Under the pieces are notes generated by a model. That model was not told where the DNA came from and did no database searches. It worked only from the letters and a program-made list of their open reading frames with translations. Below, piece after piece: positions 1-7,724 of a stretch of DNA of 64,000 bases. Numbering within the stretch: position 1 is the first letter of the stretch; each line of letters opens with the position of its first letter. A program made the position numbers and the translations under genes. Source of the DNA: an uncultured Gimesia sp. (lineage in GTDB: Bacteria; Planctomycetota; Planctomycetia; Planctomycetales; Planctomycetaceae). The stretch covers positions 42,026 to 106,025 of the forward strand of contig NZ_CAXBKP010000008.1 of assembly GCF_963976445.1 (NCBI RefSeq), in the 5' to 3' direction.

Positions 1-93
1 ACAGCAACCGATCCTGCGGATGCGAACCACGATGCTTACGCCGGTCAGGCATGAACTGGGCCAATCGTCAGAATAGAAATGACATCTTTGTGA

Positions 94-123
94 ACTTCGC
101 CGCTCGGATACATCGGATTGTCA
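94..123 (-). repeat. Left half of a degenerate attC-like site overlapping the stop codon of 121..756
   Basis: Minus strand reads TGACAATCCGATGTATCCGAGCGGCGAAGT from the stop codon. It aligns loosely with the site at 781..826. No convincing right arm was seen. Confidence 0.3.
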
Positions 124-756
124 ACTCATCCCAGAATCCATGTCGCGCCATGTTTCCACCGCACTACGGACACCTTTGACGAGCAAGTCGTGTCGTTCCG
201 GTCCTACGGCTTGTTGCATCAGGCTGAAGACATCTACAACAGCCGTCACATTCTGGGCCGCTTCCGCCAGCCAGTCGCGAAGCTGCTCGGAGTCCTCGGG
301 GGGATCATCCCAACCCTCGGGGTCATATCCCGCGAGAAACCAGGCCATGAAAGCAGCGTCCCCCAGTGGCGTATGAGCAGACTGCGGCATGTTTCTTACC
401 AGGCTCCACCACAGATCGCCGAGGCGTCGCAAGTCGTCCACCGATTGCGCACTCTCCAGCCAGATGTGTAATTCTGCCAGTACCCTCTCTACAAACTCGA
501 CATCCGCACGTTCCGGGGGTGCTTCACTCAGGGCAGCTTCAATTACGGCTACGGCAGCAATCACCGCCGGCTCCTTCCCTAGCTCAATCAGTATGATCGC
601 CCAGTCGGCCAGCTCTCCCGTTGGCAAGGCGCGCTCCGGGAAACACAAAGCCTCCACCAACATTGCGTCACGTTCTGTCAGTGAAAGTCCTGTCTCGAGA
701 GGCTGAGGTGGTTGACCGAGCCTTCCCAATGCGCGGTCGATCATTTCGTAGTCCAT
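121..756 (-). CDS. Hypothetical protein (orphan, acidic, helical)
   Basis: Long ORF (211 aa from the ATG at 756; the track starts at TTG 765). No motif recognised. Confidence 0.7.
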   Translation of the reverse strand: MDYEMIDRALGRLGQPPQPLETGLSLTERDAMLVEALCFPERALPTGELADWAIILIELGKEPAVIAAVAVIEAALSEAPPERADVEFVERVLAELHIWLESAQSVDDLRRLGDLWWSLVRNMPQSAHTPLGDAAFMAWFLAGYDPEGWDDPPEDSEQLRDWLAEAAQNVTAVVDVFSLMQQAVGPERHDLLVKGVRSAVETWRDMDSGMS

Positions 757-780
757 GTGTTGCAAGATCCCAGACGTTTT

Positions 781-826
781 AGCTAACAGAGCCGCTCGCG
801 GCTCCGCTTTCCTGCCATTGTTATTC
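781..826 (-). repeat. Short attC-like site / palindromic hairpin after the stop of 821..1348
   Basis: Minus strand GAATAAC-AATGGCAGGAAAGCG-GAGCCGC-GA-GCGGCTC-T-GTTAGCT: an AAC end overlapping the stop codon, an internal palindrome and a GTT end. Confidence 0.35.
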
Positions 827-1348
827 GACGATACTGACCATGCCGAGTGATTTGGTTTTTGCGATTAGCTCATCTGTAGAGTCAAATTTTAGTGAATTCT
901 CAACATGCAGTACTCGGCCATTTTTGCACCACACAAGTTCTCCATATCCGTGAACGAGGGACGCCCCATTCTTCAATTCCTCAAGTTTTTTCCAGCCGGG
1001 CAGTGAGCGAAGTGGTTTGTAGCCTTGAGTAACTGGCGTGCAGTCAATGTAGCGAAATGCGAGGTCGCTCTTCGGGTATCGGGTTTTGTAGTCGCGTTCA
1101 AATTCAGCAAAACGTTTACGCTGAAAAACCATAAAAGCCCAATCGACGTGGACCAGGAAAATCGTTTCAGAGTGAGAAGTTGCCTCAGCTACAGCACGCT
1201 GCACATCCTCGGCAGTCTTAAGTTGAGAAAACGTGAATTCCTGCATTAGTTCAACAGCCTGACCCTCAGGTTCCATGCGATCACAACCCGGCAAAGCGGA
1301 AAAAGACAAGGCAAATAAAAGCACGGAATGTAGCGAACATTGCGTCAT
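821..1348 (-). CDS. Hypothetical lipoprotein, possibly thioredoxin-like fold
   Basis: 175 aa with a hydrophobic N-terminus and lipobox-like ALPGC. Confidence 0.7.
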   Translation of the reverse strand: MTQCSLHSVLLFALSFSALPGCDRMEPEGQAVELMQEFTFSQLKTAEDVQRAVAEATSHSETIFLVHVDWAFMVFQRKRFAEFERDYKTRYPKSDLAFRYIDCTPVTQGYKPLRSLPGWKKLEELKNGASLVHGYGELVWCKNGRVLHVENSLKFDSTDELIAKTKSLGMVSIVE

Positions 1349-1633
1349 ATCTTAGGCGAACACCTTGAATTAGACTGAAATATTTCGATAGAACCCATTA
1401 TCGGCAGAGCTGGTGAAATTTTGTTTAACAGGATATGAATTGTCAAGCGAAATCTGAGGAAAGGGCTAAGTGAGCTGGAAAAGGCTCAGATCTCTTTGAT
1501 CTCTGTTCGCTAAGACGGCTTCCTGTCCATTCACCACTGCGGACAGTTGGCGGAAAATCAGTTCCTCTTCTGTGGCGTTCGGTCTCAAGTTCGGTTTAAT
1601 CAGAGCGATTGCTGTAGCACCTTGAACCGCTGG

Positions 1634-1927
1634 CTAGATTTTTCGAATCTCATAAGTAATTTTGCGGTGCAGTTCGTCATTTGGATTTTGCCACTCGCTG
1701 ACCCGACGCACGTGGCCTGCCCTTTCCAGAGTCTCTAGATCAGAGAGCTGCCACTTCGCTGGAAATGTCGTTGATAAGTCCTGGCCGGCTACTTCAATCC
1801 AGTGATATTGCCCAAACGGAAGATACCCCAGCCACTCAGTAACGTACGTGAATTGTCGCGACGGCTCACCTGCCAGCGCAGACAGCAATTGCTTGAGGAA
1901 TTCATGTTGTAGCTTTGTCAAATCCAT
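1634..1927 (-). CDS. Hypothetical protein (orphan)
   Basis: 97-aa ORF with ATG start, same orientation as its neighbours, no motif. Confidence 0.6.
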   Translation of the reverse strand: MDLTKLQHEFLKQLLSALAGEPSRQFTYVTEWLGYLPFGQYHWIEVAGQDLSTTFPAKWQLSDLETLERAGHVRRVSEWQNPNDELHRKITYEIRKI

Positions 1928-2025
1928 AAAGCATCACTTGAGTTAGACTGAATGATTTCAGTAGGGGTACAATAATAGGCAGGTCTCATTAATAATGCGC
2001 CCTACTCATCCTTTTAGCTTGTCGG

Positions 2026-2052
2026 GTGACACCGTGGCTTGCTCAACAGTGA
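2026..2052 (-). repeat. Degenerate REP-like copy, inverted relative to 2204..2263
   Basis: Minus strand TCACTGTTGAGCAAGCCACGGTGTCAC resembles TCACTGTCGGGCAAGCCGACAGTGGCAC. Confidence 0.55.
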
Positions 2053-2203
2053 TTACGCTTTATGGTTCAGGTCGGTTTTTCCTTGCTCGGGTGAAGGTAA
2101 GTAATTTGTTAATCTTAAAGACGAGATAATCATCGTGATTTCAATCAACATCATTTAAATGCTCTCCAATGACTGTCAAAATACAGTTGAATCAAAGTGA
2201 GTC

Positions 2204-2263
2204 TTCTCACTGTCGGGCAAGCCGACAGTGGCACACAACACAGTAAATACACTATAAAACAAG
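2204..2263 (+). repeat. REP-like palindromic repeat, copy 1
   Basis: Hairpin CACTGTCGG-GCAAG-CCGACAGTG (2208-2230) plus a tail gcacacaacacagtaaatacactataaaacaag. Near-identical to 5109..5169. Confidence 0.8.
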
Positions 2264-2320
2264 TGTGAAACAATAACATCTGGAAAAACACAAAAGCCCC
2301 CTGTTCAACGACACCGTCGA

Positions 2321-3934
2321 TCAGACTTCGATCGACTCGATCTCCGATACGAACCGACCTGCATCCTTACCCACAAACGAGGAGACCACGTTGAACACGG
2401 CGTCACTGAAGCCGCCGATGTTCAGGATGTCGTCTCGTTCCGGAGCCTGCGTTGAACCGTAAGGCTGGATGTCGATACAAACCAGCTTCGGATCAACCAC
2501 ACCAAGCCGCCTCTGGTTCTTCACGAACGTCTGCCACTCGGCCATCACACCGGTCGAACCATAGTGGCCCGCGCCAACCCAGCTCTCGTTGTCGCTCACC
2601 AGCACACAACCGGCAAACGCGCGTTTGCTCAATCGTGCATTGGCTTCGCGGAGCGGAACCGAACAGTCGGTTCCGCCGCCGCCGAACTTCGCCAGTCGCT
2701 CTGACAGACTCAGGATTGAGTCGGACGCATCAAAGCGAACGTCGTACGCCCGGGTATCGAACGGAATCACCACGCTGTCCGGATTACGCCGCAGAATGGC
2801 CGCCGCAAACAACGCCGCCACATCCACACAGCGCATCTTGCTGACAGCACCACGGCCCTGCCAACCCGTCGCAGGCGAACTCATCGAATAGGACGTATCC
2901 AAACCGATGACCACAGGCTCCACCAACTCCGGCACATTACCGCAGGCGATCTCAGCTGCAGTATGCAGGGCTGCTTTGATCTTGTGCGGAATTTCCGACG
3001 CCACATTCAGGTACGCTGCCAGGAACTGGTACGGAAACTGCCGTGAACGACGGATTGCCTTTTCGTCCGTCAATCGTTCGGCCACGTAATCCACCAGCGC
3101 ACTGTCTTTGAACACCTCGTGACGCAACAGCGTGTTAAGGTTCATCCGCAGCGCCTGCGGTCCCATCTGTCGGGCAATCGCCTTCCAGACCAACGGACCT
3201 TTGGCCGCATCGGCCAGCAGATCCCAACGCACAGACAGATCTTTCACAATCTCCGCCTGCGCTGCGTCCGTTTCTGCCTGTCGATATGCGATCAACGCCT
3301 GCACCTGTGCTGGCAGGTCAGCTTCCGTTGCAGGAGCCCACTTTTCAAGCTCCTTACCCGTCAGCCAACCAAACAGCGCACGTCGCGCATTGTCTTTTGG
3401 CGTTGGTCGCGCCATTCGCAACACATCGCGCAGACTCGGATCGTTGCCGATCGAAGCTGACAGCAACTTACCCACCGATGCCTCGTTCAGCCAGCGTTGA
3501 TACGCGCGCTGCAGACTAGACGACAAACTGCTACGACCGAACTGCCCCGAACGGATCATCTGGAACATCGTGCGCAGCACGCGGCCATTGTCCACCACCC
3601 GATCGAACACACGGTGCAGCAATTCGGTATTCCGCTTCGACAGAACCACCAACAACGCCGCCGGCATATCCTTCATGAAGGCACGCTCACGCGCGTAAAC
3701 CGCCAGCTGCGCCAGGAAGCGATTGTCATCGACCTGATCGATCAGTTTGTGTATCTCATCCAGCTGGCTCTGCGCGCTCGCATAGAACACGCCGTTGAAG
3801 CAGCCGGTGGCCGCCATCTGTGCCAGTGCCTGCTTCGGTGTGAACTTGTATGCCAGGCCTCCCGCTTCGTTGCGCGCGTTCGCGCGTGGCAGGTTACTTT
3901 TGCGACTGGAAAATAACGTTTTGTTGGCCATCAT
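2321..3934 (-). CDS. rsr: Ro60/Rsr TROVE-domain RNA-binding protein with C-terminal vWA domain
   Basis: 537 aa. TROVE hallmarks: N-terminal NEAGG.AY, AVYARE...[28 protein letters not shown]. vWA MIDAS-like DTSYSM, GGGTD and SDNE motifs. RBS AAAGGAGG at 3944-3937. Confidence 0.92.
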
Positions 3935-3996: not shown

Positions 3997-4008
3997 CCAT
4001 GTAAGCAG

Positions 4009-4148
4009 CACTCGACGAAGTAATGGGCAGAGTTTTCCCTGTGACGTCGCACGCGCGGATCACAAGGTCCGAACCAAATTGAAAAGTTAAGTGGGCCGGG
4101 CAGGATTTGAACCAGCTTTGCCATGTACTCCACTCCGGCAGTCGAGTG
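4009..4148 (-). ncRNA. Y RNA-like unit Y4 (YrlA-like; D arm replaced by a longer hairpin)
   Basis: 8-bp terminal stem CACTCGAC/GTCGAGTG, 5' motif TGCCGGAGTGGAGTACATG, 3' motif ACTCTG...CTTC, T arm GCTGG-TTCAAAT-CCTGC. Lies immediately upstream of rsr. Confidence 0.8.
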
Positions 4149-4164
4149 AGTTTTGTTAAAAAAT

Positions 4165-4298
4165 GATCGACGAAGTTGTTGAACCAGAGTTTTTTTCCAA
4201 TGCTCTGCCAATTGAGCTACAGCGTGGCATGCTTAAACAGGGAACGCTGGTGGGGCTCGAACCCACAATAGTCATGTACTCCCATTCGGCAGTCGATC
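4165..4298 (-). ncRNA. yrlA: Y RNA-like unit Y3 (YrlA-type tRNA mimic)
   Basis: Stem GATCGAC/GTCGATC and motif TGCCGAATGGGAGTACATG. T arm GTGGG-TTCGAGC-CCCAC precedes a loop-closed acceptor stem CAGCGT/ACGCTG and D arm TAGCTC-AATTGGCA-GAGC, the permuted order known for YrlA. Confidence 0.85.
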
Positions 4299-4354
4299 CT
4301 GTTTAAAGTGACGTTGTAGTCCTCTCAGAAAGTCAATATTTCAGTTTCAAAAAA

Positions 4355-4497
4355 GACCGACGAAGTTGTGTACCAGAGTTTTTACGGTGCTCTAACCTTT
4401 GAGCTACGGCGCGACACGCTTTGTGAAATAGCGCCGGTGGGACTCGAACCCACAACCACCGGGATCTAAACCATGTACTCCAGTTCGGCAGTCGGTC
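4355..4497 (-). ncRNA. yrlA: Y RNA-like unit Y2 (YrlA-type tRNA mimic)
   Basis: Stem GACCGAC/GTCGGTC, motif TGCCGAACTGGAGTACATG pairing with ACTCTGG, T arm GTGGG-TTCGAGT-CCCAC, loop-closed acceptor CGGCGC/GCGCCG, D arm TAGCTC-AAAGGTTA-GAGC. Confidence 0.85.
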
Positions 4498-4628: not shown

Positions 4629-4700
4629 AGACGCCAGTGGGAGTCGAACCCAGTTCCGACTGCTTTGCAGGCAGCCGCCCGACCATCAGGTTCCAGCGTC
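4629..4700 (-). tRNA. tRNA-Cys(GCA), non-canonical core, no encoded CCA
   Basis: GACGCTG GA ACCT GATGGTC GGGC G GCTGC CTGCAAA GCAGT CGGAA CTGGG TTCGACT CCCAC TGGCGTC T. U73 discriminator fits Cys. A10-C25 and C49-C65 are mismatched. Confidence 0.8.
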
Positions 4701-4707
4701 AGTGAAG

Positions 4708-4780
4708 TGCCCCCGTCAGGAATTGAACCTGATCTACGAGCTTCGCGGGCTCGCGTGCGAATCCGGCACACTCCAGGGAC
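4708..4780 (-). tRNA. tRNA-Arg(GCG), non-canonical core, C33, no encoded CCA
   Basis: GTCCCTG GA GTGT GCCGGATTC GCAC G CGAGC CCGCGAA GCTCG TAGA TCAGG TTCAATT CCTGA CGGGGGC A. All four stems pair, and A20 and C35 Arg identity elements are present. Confidence 0.8.
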
Positions 4781-4793
4781 CTCATATTCTCAG

Positions 4794-4864
4794 TACCTCG
4801 CCAGGGAGTTGAACCCCGTCTTATGGATTAGAAGACCACCGTGCGTCCATCACACTCGCAAGGC
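4794..4864 (-). tRNA. tRNA-Arg(TCT), non-canonical core, no encoded CCA
   Basis: GCCTTGC GA GTGT GATGGAC GCAC G GTGGT CTTCTAA TCCAT AAGA CGGGG TTCAACT CCCTG GCGAGGT A. A20 is present and there is a T31-T39 mismatch. Confidence 0.75.
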
Positions 4865-5108: not shown

Positions 5109-5169
5109 TTCTCACTGTCGGGCCAGCCGACAGTGACACACGACACGGTAATTACATCTACAAAACAAG
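5109..5169 (+). repeat. REP-like palindromic repeat, copy 2
   Basis: TCACTGTCGG-GCCAG-CCGACAGTGA hairpin plus a tail similar to 2204..2263. Confidence 0.8.
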
Positions 5170-5191: not shown

Positions 5192-5231
5192 AAACAAAAA
5201 GCCCCTGGTCCGATTTCTCAGACCAGGGGCT
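5192..5231 (-). terminator. Intrinsic terminator of katG
   Basis: 11-bp stem AGCCCCTGGTC/GACCAGGGGCT followed on the minus strand by TTTTGTTT, ~60 nt after the katG stop. Confidence 0.8.
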
Positions 5232-5294
5232 CGTTTCATTGACCGTCTCGAGTTTCCACTCGAATCGTCATTTATCAATCACTCACTCAAAAGA

Positions 5295-7724
<2,430 letters not shown>

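Follow-up and report, generated by a model that had tools for sequence, protein, structure and literature searches.

Three spare tRNA genes upstream of a planctomycete Ro60 gene share a conserved alternative tertiary core

Three genes for transfer RNA (tRNA), those for Arg(UCU), Arg(GCG) and Cys(GCA), lie side by side upstream of rsr, the Ro60 orthologue, in the DNA of an uncultured Gimesia sp. of the Planctomycetota. The stretch analyzed, called here the window, comprises 64,000 nucleotides (nt) of contig NZ_CAXBKP010000008.1, positions 42,026 to 106,025. The three are genuine tRNAs of a larger array, and they carry a conserved substitution in two layers of the tertiary core that has not been described for bacteria: G8 and G14 take the place of U8 and A14, and A48 takes the place of the pyrimidine that ordinarily faces a purine at position 15. 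The U8-A14 and R15-Y48 pairs are among the most conserved features of tRNA and are built into the model of every tRNA-finding program.

The core of the three tRNAs

The genes were called by ARAGORN and with the Rfam model RF00005, whose gathering score is 29 bits. Each reaches that score, and each folds into acceptor, D, anticodon and T stems of 7, 4, 5 and 5 pairs, with spacers of 12 and 6 nt between the genes (Table 1). An earlier note on this DNA, made from the letters alone, had claimed that all three cloverleaves have G8, G14, C21 and A48 while retaining other hallmarks of tRNA. Numbering by structure, done by hand and by script (ARAGORN plus anchoring on the anticodon and the T loop), confirms the four bases in each gene, and the hallmarks as well: G18G19, a T loop TTCRAYT, the identity elements A20 and C35 in both Arg tRNAs and U73 in the Cys tRNA. 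The trio also shares A9 and G26. Position 15 is A or C, and none of the three has the canonical core of U8-A14-A21 with R15-Y48. Their variable loops are 4, 4 and 5 nt long in Arg(UCU), Arg(GCG) and Cys(GCA). It was fair to call the tRNAs otherwise dissimilar, as their pairwise identity is 62-67%, no more than that of random pairs of tRNAs.

Such a core is foreign to the housekeeping tRNAs of the same genome, which was surveyed whole (7.09 Mb, 60 contigs, 64 tRNAs). These all have T8 and A14, a purine at position 21 and a pyrimidine at position 48, so the doubt whether the trio merely follows the habit of its genome is settled. Among the other 61 tRNAs, G8 with G14 occurs once, in a tRNA-Asn of the array described below, while A48 does not occur, nor does C21 (taken as the last base of the D loop). 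Among the housekeeping genes, those for Cys(GCA), Arg(UCU), Arg(ACG) and Arg(UCG) are canonical in every respect, scoring 66-75 bits, and the presence of the first three of these elsewhere in the genome makes the tRNAs of the window supernumerary. The core shared by the trio cannot be chance. CCA is encoded neither in the trio nor in the housekeeping tRNA genes; a large share of the latter have CTT directly after the discriminator base.

Each of the three has peculiarities of its own. Arg(GCG) has C33 where tRNAs universally have U33 (its anticodon loop is at about 4742-4748), a trait found in 8 of 28 Arg(gcg) orthologues. Its anticodon is also unusual, in that bacteria normally decode Arg with an ACG anticodon edited to ICG. 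Arg(UCU) has a U31-U39 mismatch, a state seen in 1 of 30 orthologues. The Cys tRNA has two stem mismatches, A10-C25 and C49-C65, each present in 1 of 42 sequences and in no other orthologue, and it scores 32.9 bits, compared to 42.8 bits for its orthologue in genome G315.

Other readings of these folds were tried and rejected. ARAGORN offers for the Cys tRNA an 8/4 form like that of tRNA-Sec (RF01852 35.1 bits, where at least 47 are needed). A tRNA-Sec would have a UCA anticodon, an acceptor/T geometry of 8/5 or 9/4, a D stem of 6 pairs and a long variable arm, at odds, in the Cys tRNA, with its GCA anticodon, its 5-nt variable loop and the 7/5 geometry of its orthologues. The eighth acceptor pair is an artefact of the C49-C65 mismatch, because G49-C65 is kept in 40 of 42 orthologues. 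Minimum free energy (MFE) folding of single sequences was uninformative, as housekeeping tRNAs misfold too. It suggested for Arg(GCG) a D stem of 6 pairs, shifted by 2 nt in register and taking in G14, but the GUGUG/GCACG arm is invariant and such a stem is impossible in Cys.

Conservation of the core

The trio has orthologues upstream of rsr in other Planctomycetota. The comparison covers 80 rsr loci, many of them from metagenome bins, with Rsr 72-84% identical across orders; Planctomycetaceae, Pirellulaceae, Stieleria, Rhodopirellula and Bythopirellula are included. Core states were counted in 409 tRNAs found upstream of rsr, where a few oddly shaped genes were misnumbered and were removed by a filter on stem quality.

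In the Cys(gca) lineage G8 is present in 40 of 44 genes, G14 in 42, A48 in 43 and A15 in 43. The Arg(gcg) lineage has G8 in 28 of 29, G14 in 28 and A48 in 25, and the Arg(tcg) lineage has G8 in 28 of 31, G14 in 27 and A48 in 29. Across more than 100 orthologues, then, each of the three bases is kept in 86-98%. Position 21 behaves quite differently: C19 A13 G6 T6 in Cys(gca), C16 A7 T5 G1 in Arg(gcg) and A16 C7 G5 T3 in Arg(tcg). The four-base signature of the earlier note therefore stands for G8, G14 and A48 and falls for C21, because position 21 varies freely among the orthologues (C 42, A 35, G 12, T 12 in the G8/G14 class). The same count disposes of a G14-C21 pair that would extend the D stem to five pairs with G8 docked upon it. 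As far as the orthologues tell, the signature is G8/G14/A48 with A15 or C15, usually in company with a 4-nt variable loop.

The association of the two layers is most easily seen in the well-folded class I tRNAs of the arrays. A48 is found in 92 of 101 tRNAs with G8/G14 and in 3 of 147 with U8/A14. The states of 15-48 are A-A (57) and C-A (30) in the first class, A-T (103) and G-C (33) in the second. The G8/G14 class has a 4-nt variable loop in 87 and A9 in 84 of its 101 members. Even tRNAs with the same anticodon sort in this fashion: Arg(ccg) occurs in two lineages, one with U8/A14 and Y48 (8 genes), the other with G8/G14 and A48 (5 genes).

A pseudogene would have lost stem pairing and invariant loop bases, and its homologues would show no constraint; random decay is ruled out for the lineages by the pairing of their stems, by compensatory changes and by invariant loops. 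Of the stem cells in any one orthologue group 95-99% are paired, and double compensatory changes are found at 8-10 of its 21 pairs. RNAalifold finds a clean cloverleaf in 53 Arg sequences, with 14 of 21 pairs compensated, and for 42 Cys sequences it predicts 20 pairs, 13 of them with compensation. G18-G19-A20 is invariant in the 53 Arg genes, and G18G19 together with T54-T55-C56-R57-A58 is invariant in 42 Cys and 58 Arg orthologues. The Cys orthologues have U73 without exception (42/42), and they keep the mismatch A13-A22 (with A46), a hallmark of tRNA-Cys in bacteria. The comparison shows that purifying selection has preserved the core states in three separate lineages of tRNA: Cys-GCA, Arg-UCG/CCG and Arg-GCG. 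The odd core is evidently an inherited and selected design, not decay, and what the earlier note took for an alternative-core class of tRNA is real and conserved, lying outside the housekeeping set.

An array of tRNA genes upstream of rsr

A search for linkage of the core to TROVE genes had also been suggested, and the linkage is widespread: in about 50 of the 80 loci a tRNA array lies, on the strand of rsr, within 4 kb upstream of that gene. The arrays contain up to 29 tRNA genes within the stretches fetched and cover about 18 amino acids, and they end in a conserved order, ...His Thr(tgt) Arg(cct) Arg(ccg) Arg(tcg) Arg(gcg) Cys(gca). The complete array of G315 (locus L113, G315:C12, 990-4676 on the minus strand) has 29 tRNAs in its 3.7 kb, from Phe to Cys, with YrlA and rsr after them. 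Arrays of 21-29 tRNAs are found also in L001, L003, L012, L014, L026, L042 and L056 (positions 1-3500). Because the order ends with Arg(tcg) Arg(gcg) Cys(gca), the trio of the window represents the last three genes of the array. A tRNA array unit, or L-array, is defined by at least 20 tRNA genes at a density of at least 2 per kb (PMC4758250). Orthologous loci reach those values, while the window has 3 genes in 236 bp, which are, by this comparison, the worn 3' tail of something larger. In this genome the array lies in three pieces, on contigs C2, C18 and C8, the last being the trio.

The tail is followed by YrlA-like Y RNAs and rsr (Table 1). The two matches to RF02553 lie 430-550 nt upstream of rsr, and the second unit is 72% identical to the first. 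A third unit, at 4007-4153, has no Rfam match of its own. The first YrlA-like RNA has a canonical tRNA-like D/T module, and in the alignments of these YrlA-like RNAs the D arm reads UAGCUCA...AGAGC, in line with the remark of the earlier note that the neighboring Y RNAs are canonical where the tRNAs are not. By the rule of PMC4201824, a TROVE+vWA protein with a YrlA-like RNA less than 4 kb away, this is an Rsr-YrlA module. Upstream, a katG-like gene (an open reading frame, ORF, at 5295-7676 with a peroxidase domain) ends in a strong terminator (5232-5199), so the block of tRNAs, Y RNAs and rsr is a separate unit. A scan for sigma-70 promoters upstream of the window's tRNAs found none.

Table 1. 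Positions of the tRNA genes and of the features discussed with them. Coordinates are those of the window unless a contig or locus is named.
Feature	Position	Strand	Evidence or content
tRNA-Arg(UCU)	4794-4864 (4793-4864 by ARAGORN)	minus	ARAGORN; RF00005 39.9 bits; G8 4857, G14 4851, C21 4845, A48 4819
tRNA-Arg(GCG)	4708-4780 (4707-4780 by ARAGORN)	minus	ARAGORN; RF00005 36.4 bits, sensitive run only; G8 4773, G14 4767, C21 4759, A48 4733
tRNA-Cys(GCA)	4629-4700	minus	ARAGORN; RF00005 32.9 bits; G8 4693, G14 4687, C21 4681, A48 4654, also A15
YrlA-like Y RNA, first	4364-4481	minus	RF02553 46.4 bits, E 8e-9; gathering score 69
YrlA-like Y RNA, second	4161-4299	minus	RF02553 34.8 bits, E 2e-5; gathering score 69
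Third Y-like unit	4007-4153	minus	directly upstream of rsr; 77% identity with the matching stretch in same-genus genome G344
rsr (Ro60 orthologue)	2321-3934	minus	TROVE PF05731 and vWA_Ro60 PF25045
Intrinsic terminator of katG-like gene	5199-5232	minus	15-bp stem, then T run
Array fragment, C2 (L084)	C2:196540-197057		Phe, Glu, Ser, Ser, His; low-scoring, match earlier array segment
Array fragment, C18 (L083)	C18:75478-76754		Glu, Lys, Thr, Gly, Pro, Asn, Trp, Leu, Asp, Leu, Tyr, Leu; low-scoring, earlier array segment
Leader ORF and terminator, G315	L113 4690-4876	minus	
Leader ORF and terminator, L015	L015 ~1680-1880		
Leader ORF and terminator, this genome	L084 (C2) 2416-2535		

The locus comes and goes. 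Of four genomes of the same genus, two have rsr and two do not; a Cys tRNA of the G8/G14 type is likewise present in two, and strong matches to it are confined to those with rsr. The rsr-negative genome G357 gives a weak Cys match, yet the locus there holds a G8/G14/A48 Cys/Arg tail. In G344, Arg(gcg) and Cys precede rsr, and of the third gene, the orthologue of the window's Arg(UCU), no more than the final ~18 nt are left (L114, G344:C1, about 5140-5160); the array tail is eroding in this genus. The locus is accessory, and its patchy distribution suggests horizontal transfer. Conserved protein neighbors (nucleases, ligases, synthetases) were sought in the 80 loci and none was found; only rsr is common to them.

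In G315 and in L015 the first tRNA gene of the array (Phe) is directly preceded by an ORF of 37-38 codons (MLTIIRSYLG...PLRL) and a strong intrinsic terminator. The C2 fragment of this genome likewise has an ORF of 22 codons (MTIFRSPEEQRKVIRSVCSIWS, then stop) and a terminator ahead of tRNA-Phe, while three other loci checked have neither element. Leader and terminator together look like an attenuator, to judge by their arrangement. An attenuator-type design would fit a pool of spare tRNAs released when translation stalls, by analogy with the L-array of Anabaena, which is induced under translational stress (PMC8421152). The tail in the window has been cut off from the head of the array and therefore must rely on another promoter. 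Since the array uses a GCG anticodon for Arg, its set requires no editing of A34 for Arg and has no dependence on the host's TadA.

Other members of the array deviate in ways of their own. The array tRNA-Thr(UGU) (L113 1630-1704; L091 1247-1321) has U8-G14, a D loop, GACTGAGAA, lacking a clear G18G19, and a T loop TGCGAAT, with G55 for U55; its elbow may be rewired too. The array tRNA-Ala genes are 88-94 nt long with variable regions of 20-26 nt (L113 2121-2208 and 2217-2310; L001 1543-1634; L012 1767-1956), which would make them either class II-like Ala tRNAs or carriers of inserts. ARAGORN calls a 70-nt tRNA-Met(cat) that has no proper D stem and in some cases a T loop GTGCGAC (L014 1345, L019 861, L022 3547/3618, L026 1046, L029 870). 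These may be D-arm-less tRNAs or something else. Finally, in two genomes the array and rsr have a tmRNA gene some 2-5 kb away (L113 6926-7281, minus; L002 8743-9100, minus), perhaps by coincidence.

Descent of the core

The window's Arg(UCU) is closest to the array's Arg(tcg), with up to 92% identity (L012), and occupies the same place in the order. The true Arg(tct) of the array lies further upstream in other genomes, and its core is T8/A14/A21/T48 in 13 of 13. Judged by position and similarity, the window's Arg(UCU) is an orthologue of Arg(UCG) whose anticodon has evidently shifted from TCG to TCT. The reverse is seen in L015, whose Arg(tcg), with U8/A14/U48, might pass for an independent reversion of the core. 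That was rejected: it has the body of the Arg(tct) lineage and is a case of anticodon shift. Because of these two opposite shifts, the core type can be said to travel with the body and not with the anticodon. The window's Arg(GCG) shares 92% identity with its Arg(gcg) counterparts in three loci from other families (L001, L011, L026).

With the columns of core and anticodon removed, the Cys consensus is nearest to Leu and Gly tRNAs of the array, and Arg(gcg) is nearest to Arg(cct), whose core is U8/A14. A tree of the 56 columns, whose deep branches are unreliable because the alignment is short, places the G8/G14 tRNAs in three separate clades, Cys (36), Arg-tcg/ccg (32, including the window's Arg(UCU)) and Arg-gcg (24), and requires at least 9 changes of core state. 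The coupling of G8/G14 to A48 is strongly suggested by these comparisons, but it is not statistically proven, because independent lineages and contrasts are too few.

Most array tRNAs keep U8-A14 (175/338). A second flavor of altered core is found in Asn, His and Gln: G8/G14/C21/C48, with a 5-nt loop ending in GAC. Other states of 8-14 are A8-U14 in Thr-GGU and Lys-CUU, U8-G14 in Thr-UGU, A8-A14 in Ser-GCU and C8-A14 in Tyr.

The full combination G8/G14/A48 turns up also in two phages, in a tRNA-Pro of Streptomyces phage Stanimal (L082 1474-1547) and in a tRNA-Phe of a phage contig from IMG/VR (L110 6991-7066). Both encode a Ro-like protein near their tRNA genes. These unrelated tRNAs offer independent support from outside the Planctomycetota. 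A direct phage origin for the locus was considered and rejected: a comparison with 50,697 phage records gave no close match at the DNA level, and of four relatives of Rsr in IMG/VR the closest (68%) has no adjacent tRNAs.

A proposed back-up set of tRNAs and the alternatives

I propose that the window's trio are real spare tRNAs, the tail of an array, with an inherited alternative core, and that they belong to a back-up pool for decoding. I would give this reading a probability of about 60%. A purine-purine pair G8-G14 would replace the reverse-Hoogsteen layer U8-A14, and A48 facing A15 or C15 would replace the R15-Y48 Levitt layer that is stacked on it. The two layers would change together for steric reasons, because purine-purine pairs are longer and adjacent layers must shift together. 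The RNAs would then fold into the normal L shape. The tRNAs, Y RNAs and Rsr would be made from one transcript, RNase P and a 3' nuclease would cut at the spacers of 6-12 nt, and CCA would be added afterwards. The host's ArgRS and CysRS would charge the products by way of the conserved A20/C35 and U73/GCA, and the charged spare tRNAs would serve as a back-up in decoding Arg and Cys codons.

Several observations weigh against this proposal. Phylogenetically independent contrasts for G8/G14 and A48 give 2-4 concordant and 0 discordant, with a median p of 0.25, a test that is underpowered. The trio scores 33-40 bits with RF00005, about half of what housekeeping tRNAs score. The rest of the contrary evidence concerns wear, and it is just what might be expected if the genes were relics in this genome, functionless leftovers whose core was inherited from functional ancestors. 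The array is broken up over three contigs. The window's own Cys tRNA, the lowest in score, has two mismatches that no orthologue shares, and Arg(UCU) has one mismatch. In G344 the orthologue of the third gene has been reduced to its last ~18 nt, and half of the same-genus genomes lack the rsr locus altogether. For all that, the cloverleaves, T loops, G18G19 and identity elements are intact and all three genes pass the RF00005 gathering score; Arg(GCG) still matches orthologues in other families at 92% identity; and rsr and the Y RNAs downstream are intact. The shift from TCG to TCT, moreover, restores a reader of AGA that is missing from the genome's other spare tRNAs, which looks like selection. 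It is unlikely, then, that these are relics.

One may instead accept that the tRNAs function and suppose that the core itself is the adaptation. G8/G14/A48 might hide the spare tRNAs from a toxin, nuclease or modification enzyme that reads the standard core, or mark them for handling by Rsr and Y RNA, so that G8-G14/N15-A48 would be a mark of orthogonality separating a stress-induced spare pool from the housekeeping pool. Several observations speak for this idea. The trio of bases is strictly conserved in accessory tRNAs physically tied to an RNA-surveillance module, it is never found in housekeeping tRNAs and it recurs in phage tRNAs, for which evasion of the host's tRNA nucleases is well established. 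The array's Arg(GCG) avoids A34 and is thereby free of editing by TadA. The rsr gene of Salmonella is part of an operon that responds to tRNA damage by induction. If the idea were true, the operon of tRNA array, Y RNA and rsr would be a self-contained system for the rescue of translation. Against it, the core is limited to the Arg(NCG) and Cys members of the array, most of whose tRNAs (175 of 338) keep U8-A14. No gene for a nuclease, toxin or dedicated enzyme is conserved beside the 80 loci, only rsr, and no factor is known to me that recognizes bases 8, 14 and 48 in such a fashion. I regard both the hiding from enzymes, which the earlier note had raised for nucleases and sensors, and the mark of orthogonality as doubtful.

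Two further explanations merit less belief than these. The trio might have no role in translation, serving as tRNA-shaped partners or substrates of Rsr, for example as decoys, scaffolds or signals that free the 5' end of the first Y RNA. The trio does come to within 8 nt of the first Y-like RNA and shares the strand of rsr, and Y RNAs of this family are themselves mimics of tRNA (PMC4201824). But the anticodons, A20/C35 and U73 are conserved as real identity elements are, the same genes in relatives sit in arrays for at least 18 amino acids, as befits a set for decoding, and a pure processing signal has no need of covariation in the anticodon stem. A role of this kind is improbable. Less credible still is protection from ultraviolet (UV) light, raised by the earlier note: in the absence of U8 there would be no 4-thiouridine at that position (s4U8) and hence no near-UV crosslink to C13. 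G8 does remove the site of s4U8, and Rsr has been linked to UV resistance in Deinococcus. Against this, no ThiI gene is detectable in the genome: the sole match to ThiI (PF02568) is a stretch of 45 positions inside MnmA, in the PP-loop region. The housekeeping tRNAs are therefore probably devoid of s4U8 as well. Most other tRNAs of the array, furthermore, keep U8. An insensitivity to UV gained through loss of s4U8 has very little to recommend it.

Comparison with known systems

The L-arrays are the nearest parallel to the back-up set proposed here. Like the planctomycete array, they are dense, same-strand collections of supernumerary tRNAs that duplicate housekeeping isoacceptors, are patchy in distribution and score low against tRNA models. 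Unlike them, the planctomycete array forms one locus with Y RNA genes and rsr and has a fixed G8/G14/A48 core in three of its lineages, with the window holding a remnant of 3 genes. Two surveys list tRNA arrays in Planctomycetes, and neither mentions Ro60; a search of the literature found no paper that joins a tRNA array with Rsr and no description of an operon of tRNA array, Y RNA and rsr. From the side of Ro60, the Rsr-YrlA systems of Salmonella, Mycobacterium smegmatis and mycobacteriophages (PMC4201824) resemble this locus in that a TROVE+vWA gene is preceded on the same strand by YrlA-like RNAs that mimic tRNA. The locus in the window differs in having no rtcBA or rtcR, in having genuine tRNA genes directly upstream, and in the weakness of its YrlA matches (46 and 35 bits versus a gathering score of 69). 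Candidate YrlA RNAs that overlapped tRNA genes in tandem were excluded by Chen et al. 2014.

Phages provide a looser likeness. Ro-like genes occur in 348 phage records, and in the two neighborhoods that were opened, those of Myxococcus phage Mx1 and Streptomyces phage Stanimal, the gene lies among tRNA genes; in Mycobacterium phage Myrna the Ro gene is outside the tRNA cluster. Mx1 and Stanimal share with the planctomycete locus a Ro60 homologue in the midst of many supernumerary tRNA genes, but their Ro proteins are only 22-41% identical, their tRNAs are interspersed with protein genes, and no gene order is shared.

Each half of the core substitution has a precedent. The literature search turned up G8-G14 in a tRNA context only once, in tDNA-Thr(TGT) of Haloferax volcanii, which Grosjean and colleagues read as a Hoogsteen G8-G14 pair in a gene with a low covariance-model score (PMC2584109). 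Like the trio, that tRNA has G for U8 and G for A14 together. It is, on the other hand, a single archaeal housekeeping gene with no reported link to position 48 and no conserved family shown. The other half appears in eukaryotic tRNA-Ala(AGC), where R15/A48 is coupled to A54/A58, as Westhof and colleagues explain by the geometry of the longer purine-purine pairs; the combination is stated not to be seen in bacteria or archaea (PMC7566577). There, as in the class described here, a purine at position 48 forms a purine-purine Levitt layer and is always accompanied by a second purine-purine tertiary pair. In tRNA-Ala the partner layer is 54-58, whereas here it is 8-14, and T54 and A58 are canonical. 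The core of E. coli tRNA-Cys is said to contain G15-G48 and A13-A22-A46, a finding attributed to Hou and colleagues in 1993 and to Hauenstein and colleagues in 2004 (as cited in PMC7566577). The Cys tRNA of the array is similar in having A13-A22 with A46 and a purine-purine 15-48 layer, but it has A15-A48 in place of G15-G48, and its U8-A14 is replaced besides.

What the core and the operon may mean

In three lineages, with more than 100 tRNA genes of bacteria between them, both layers are replaced together, and purifying selection keeps them so. The class would carry over to bacteria a rule of coupling known until now from eukaryotic tRNA-Ala only, and it provides a ready natural experiment on the core's tolerance for two purine-purine layers, one stacked on the other, and on the question which enzymes read it. 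The class also carries a practical warning: tRNAs with G8/G14/A48 score about half of normal and are easily missed or called pseudogenes. The widespread operon, for its part, ties a spare set of tRNAs to surveillance by Ro60 and Y RNA. That link could explain the presence of Ro60 genes among the tRNA genes of large phages and, perhaps, the role of Ro60 in bacteria.

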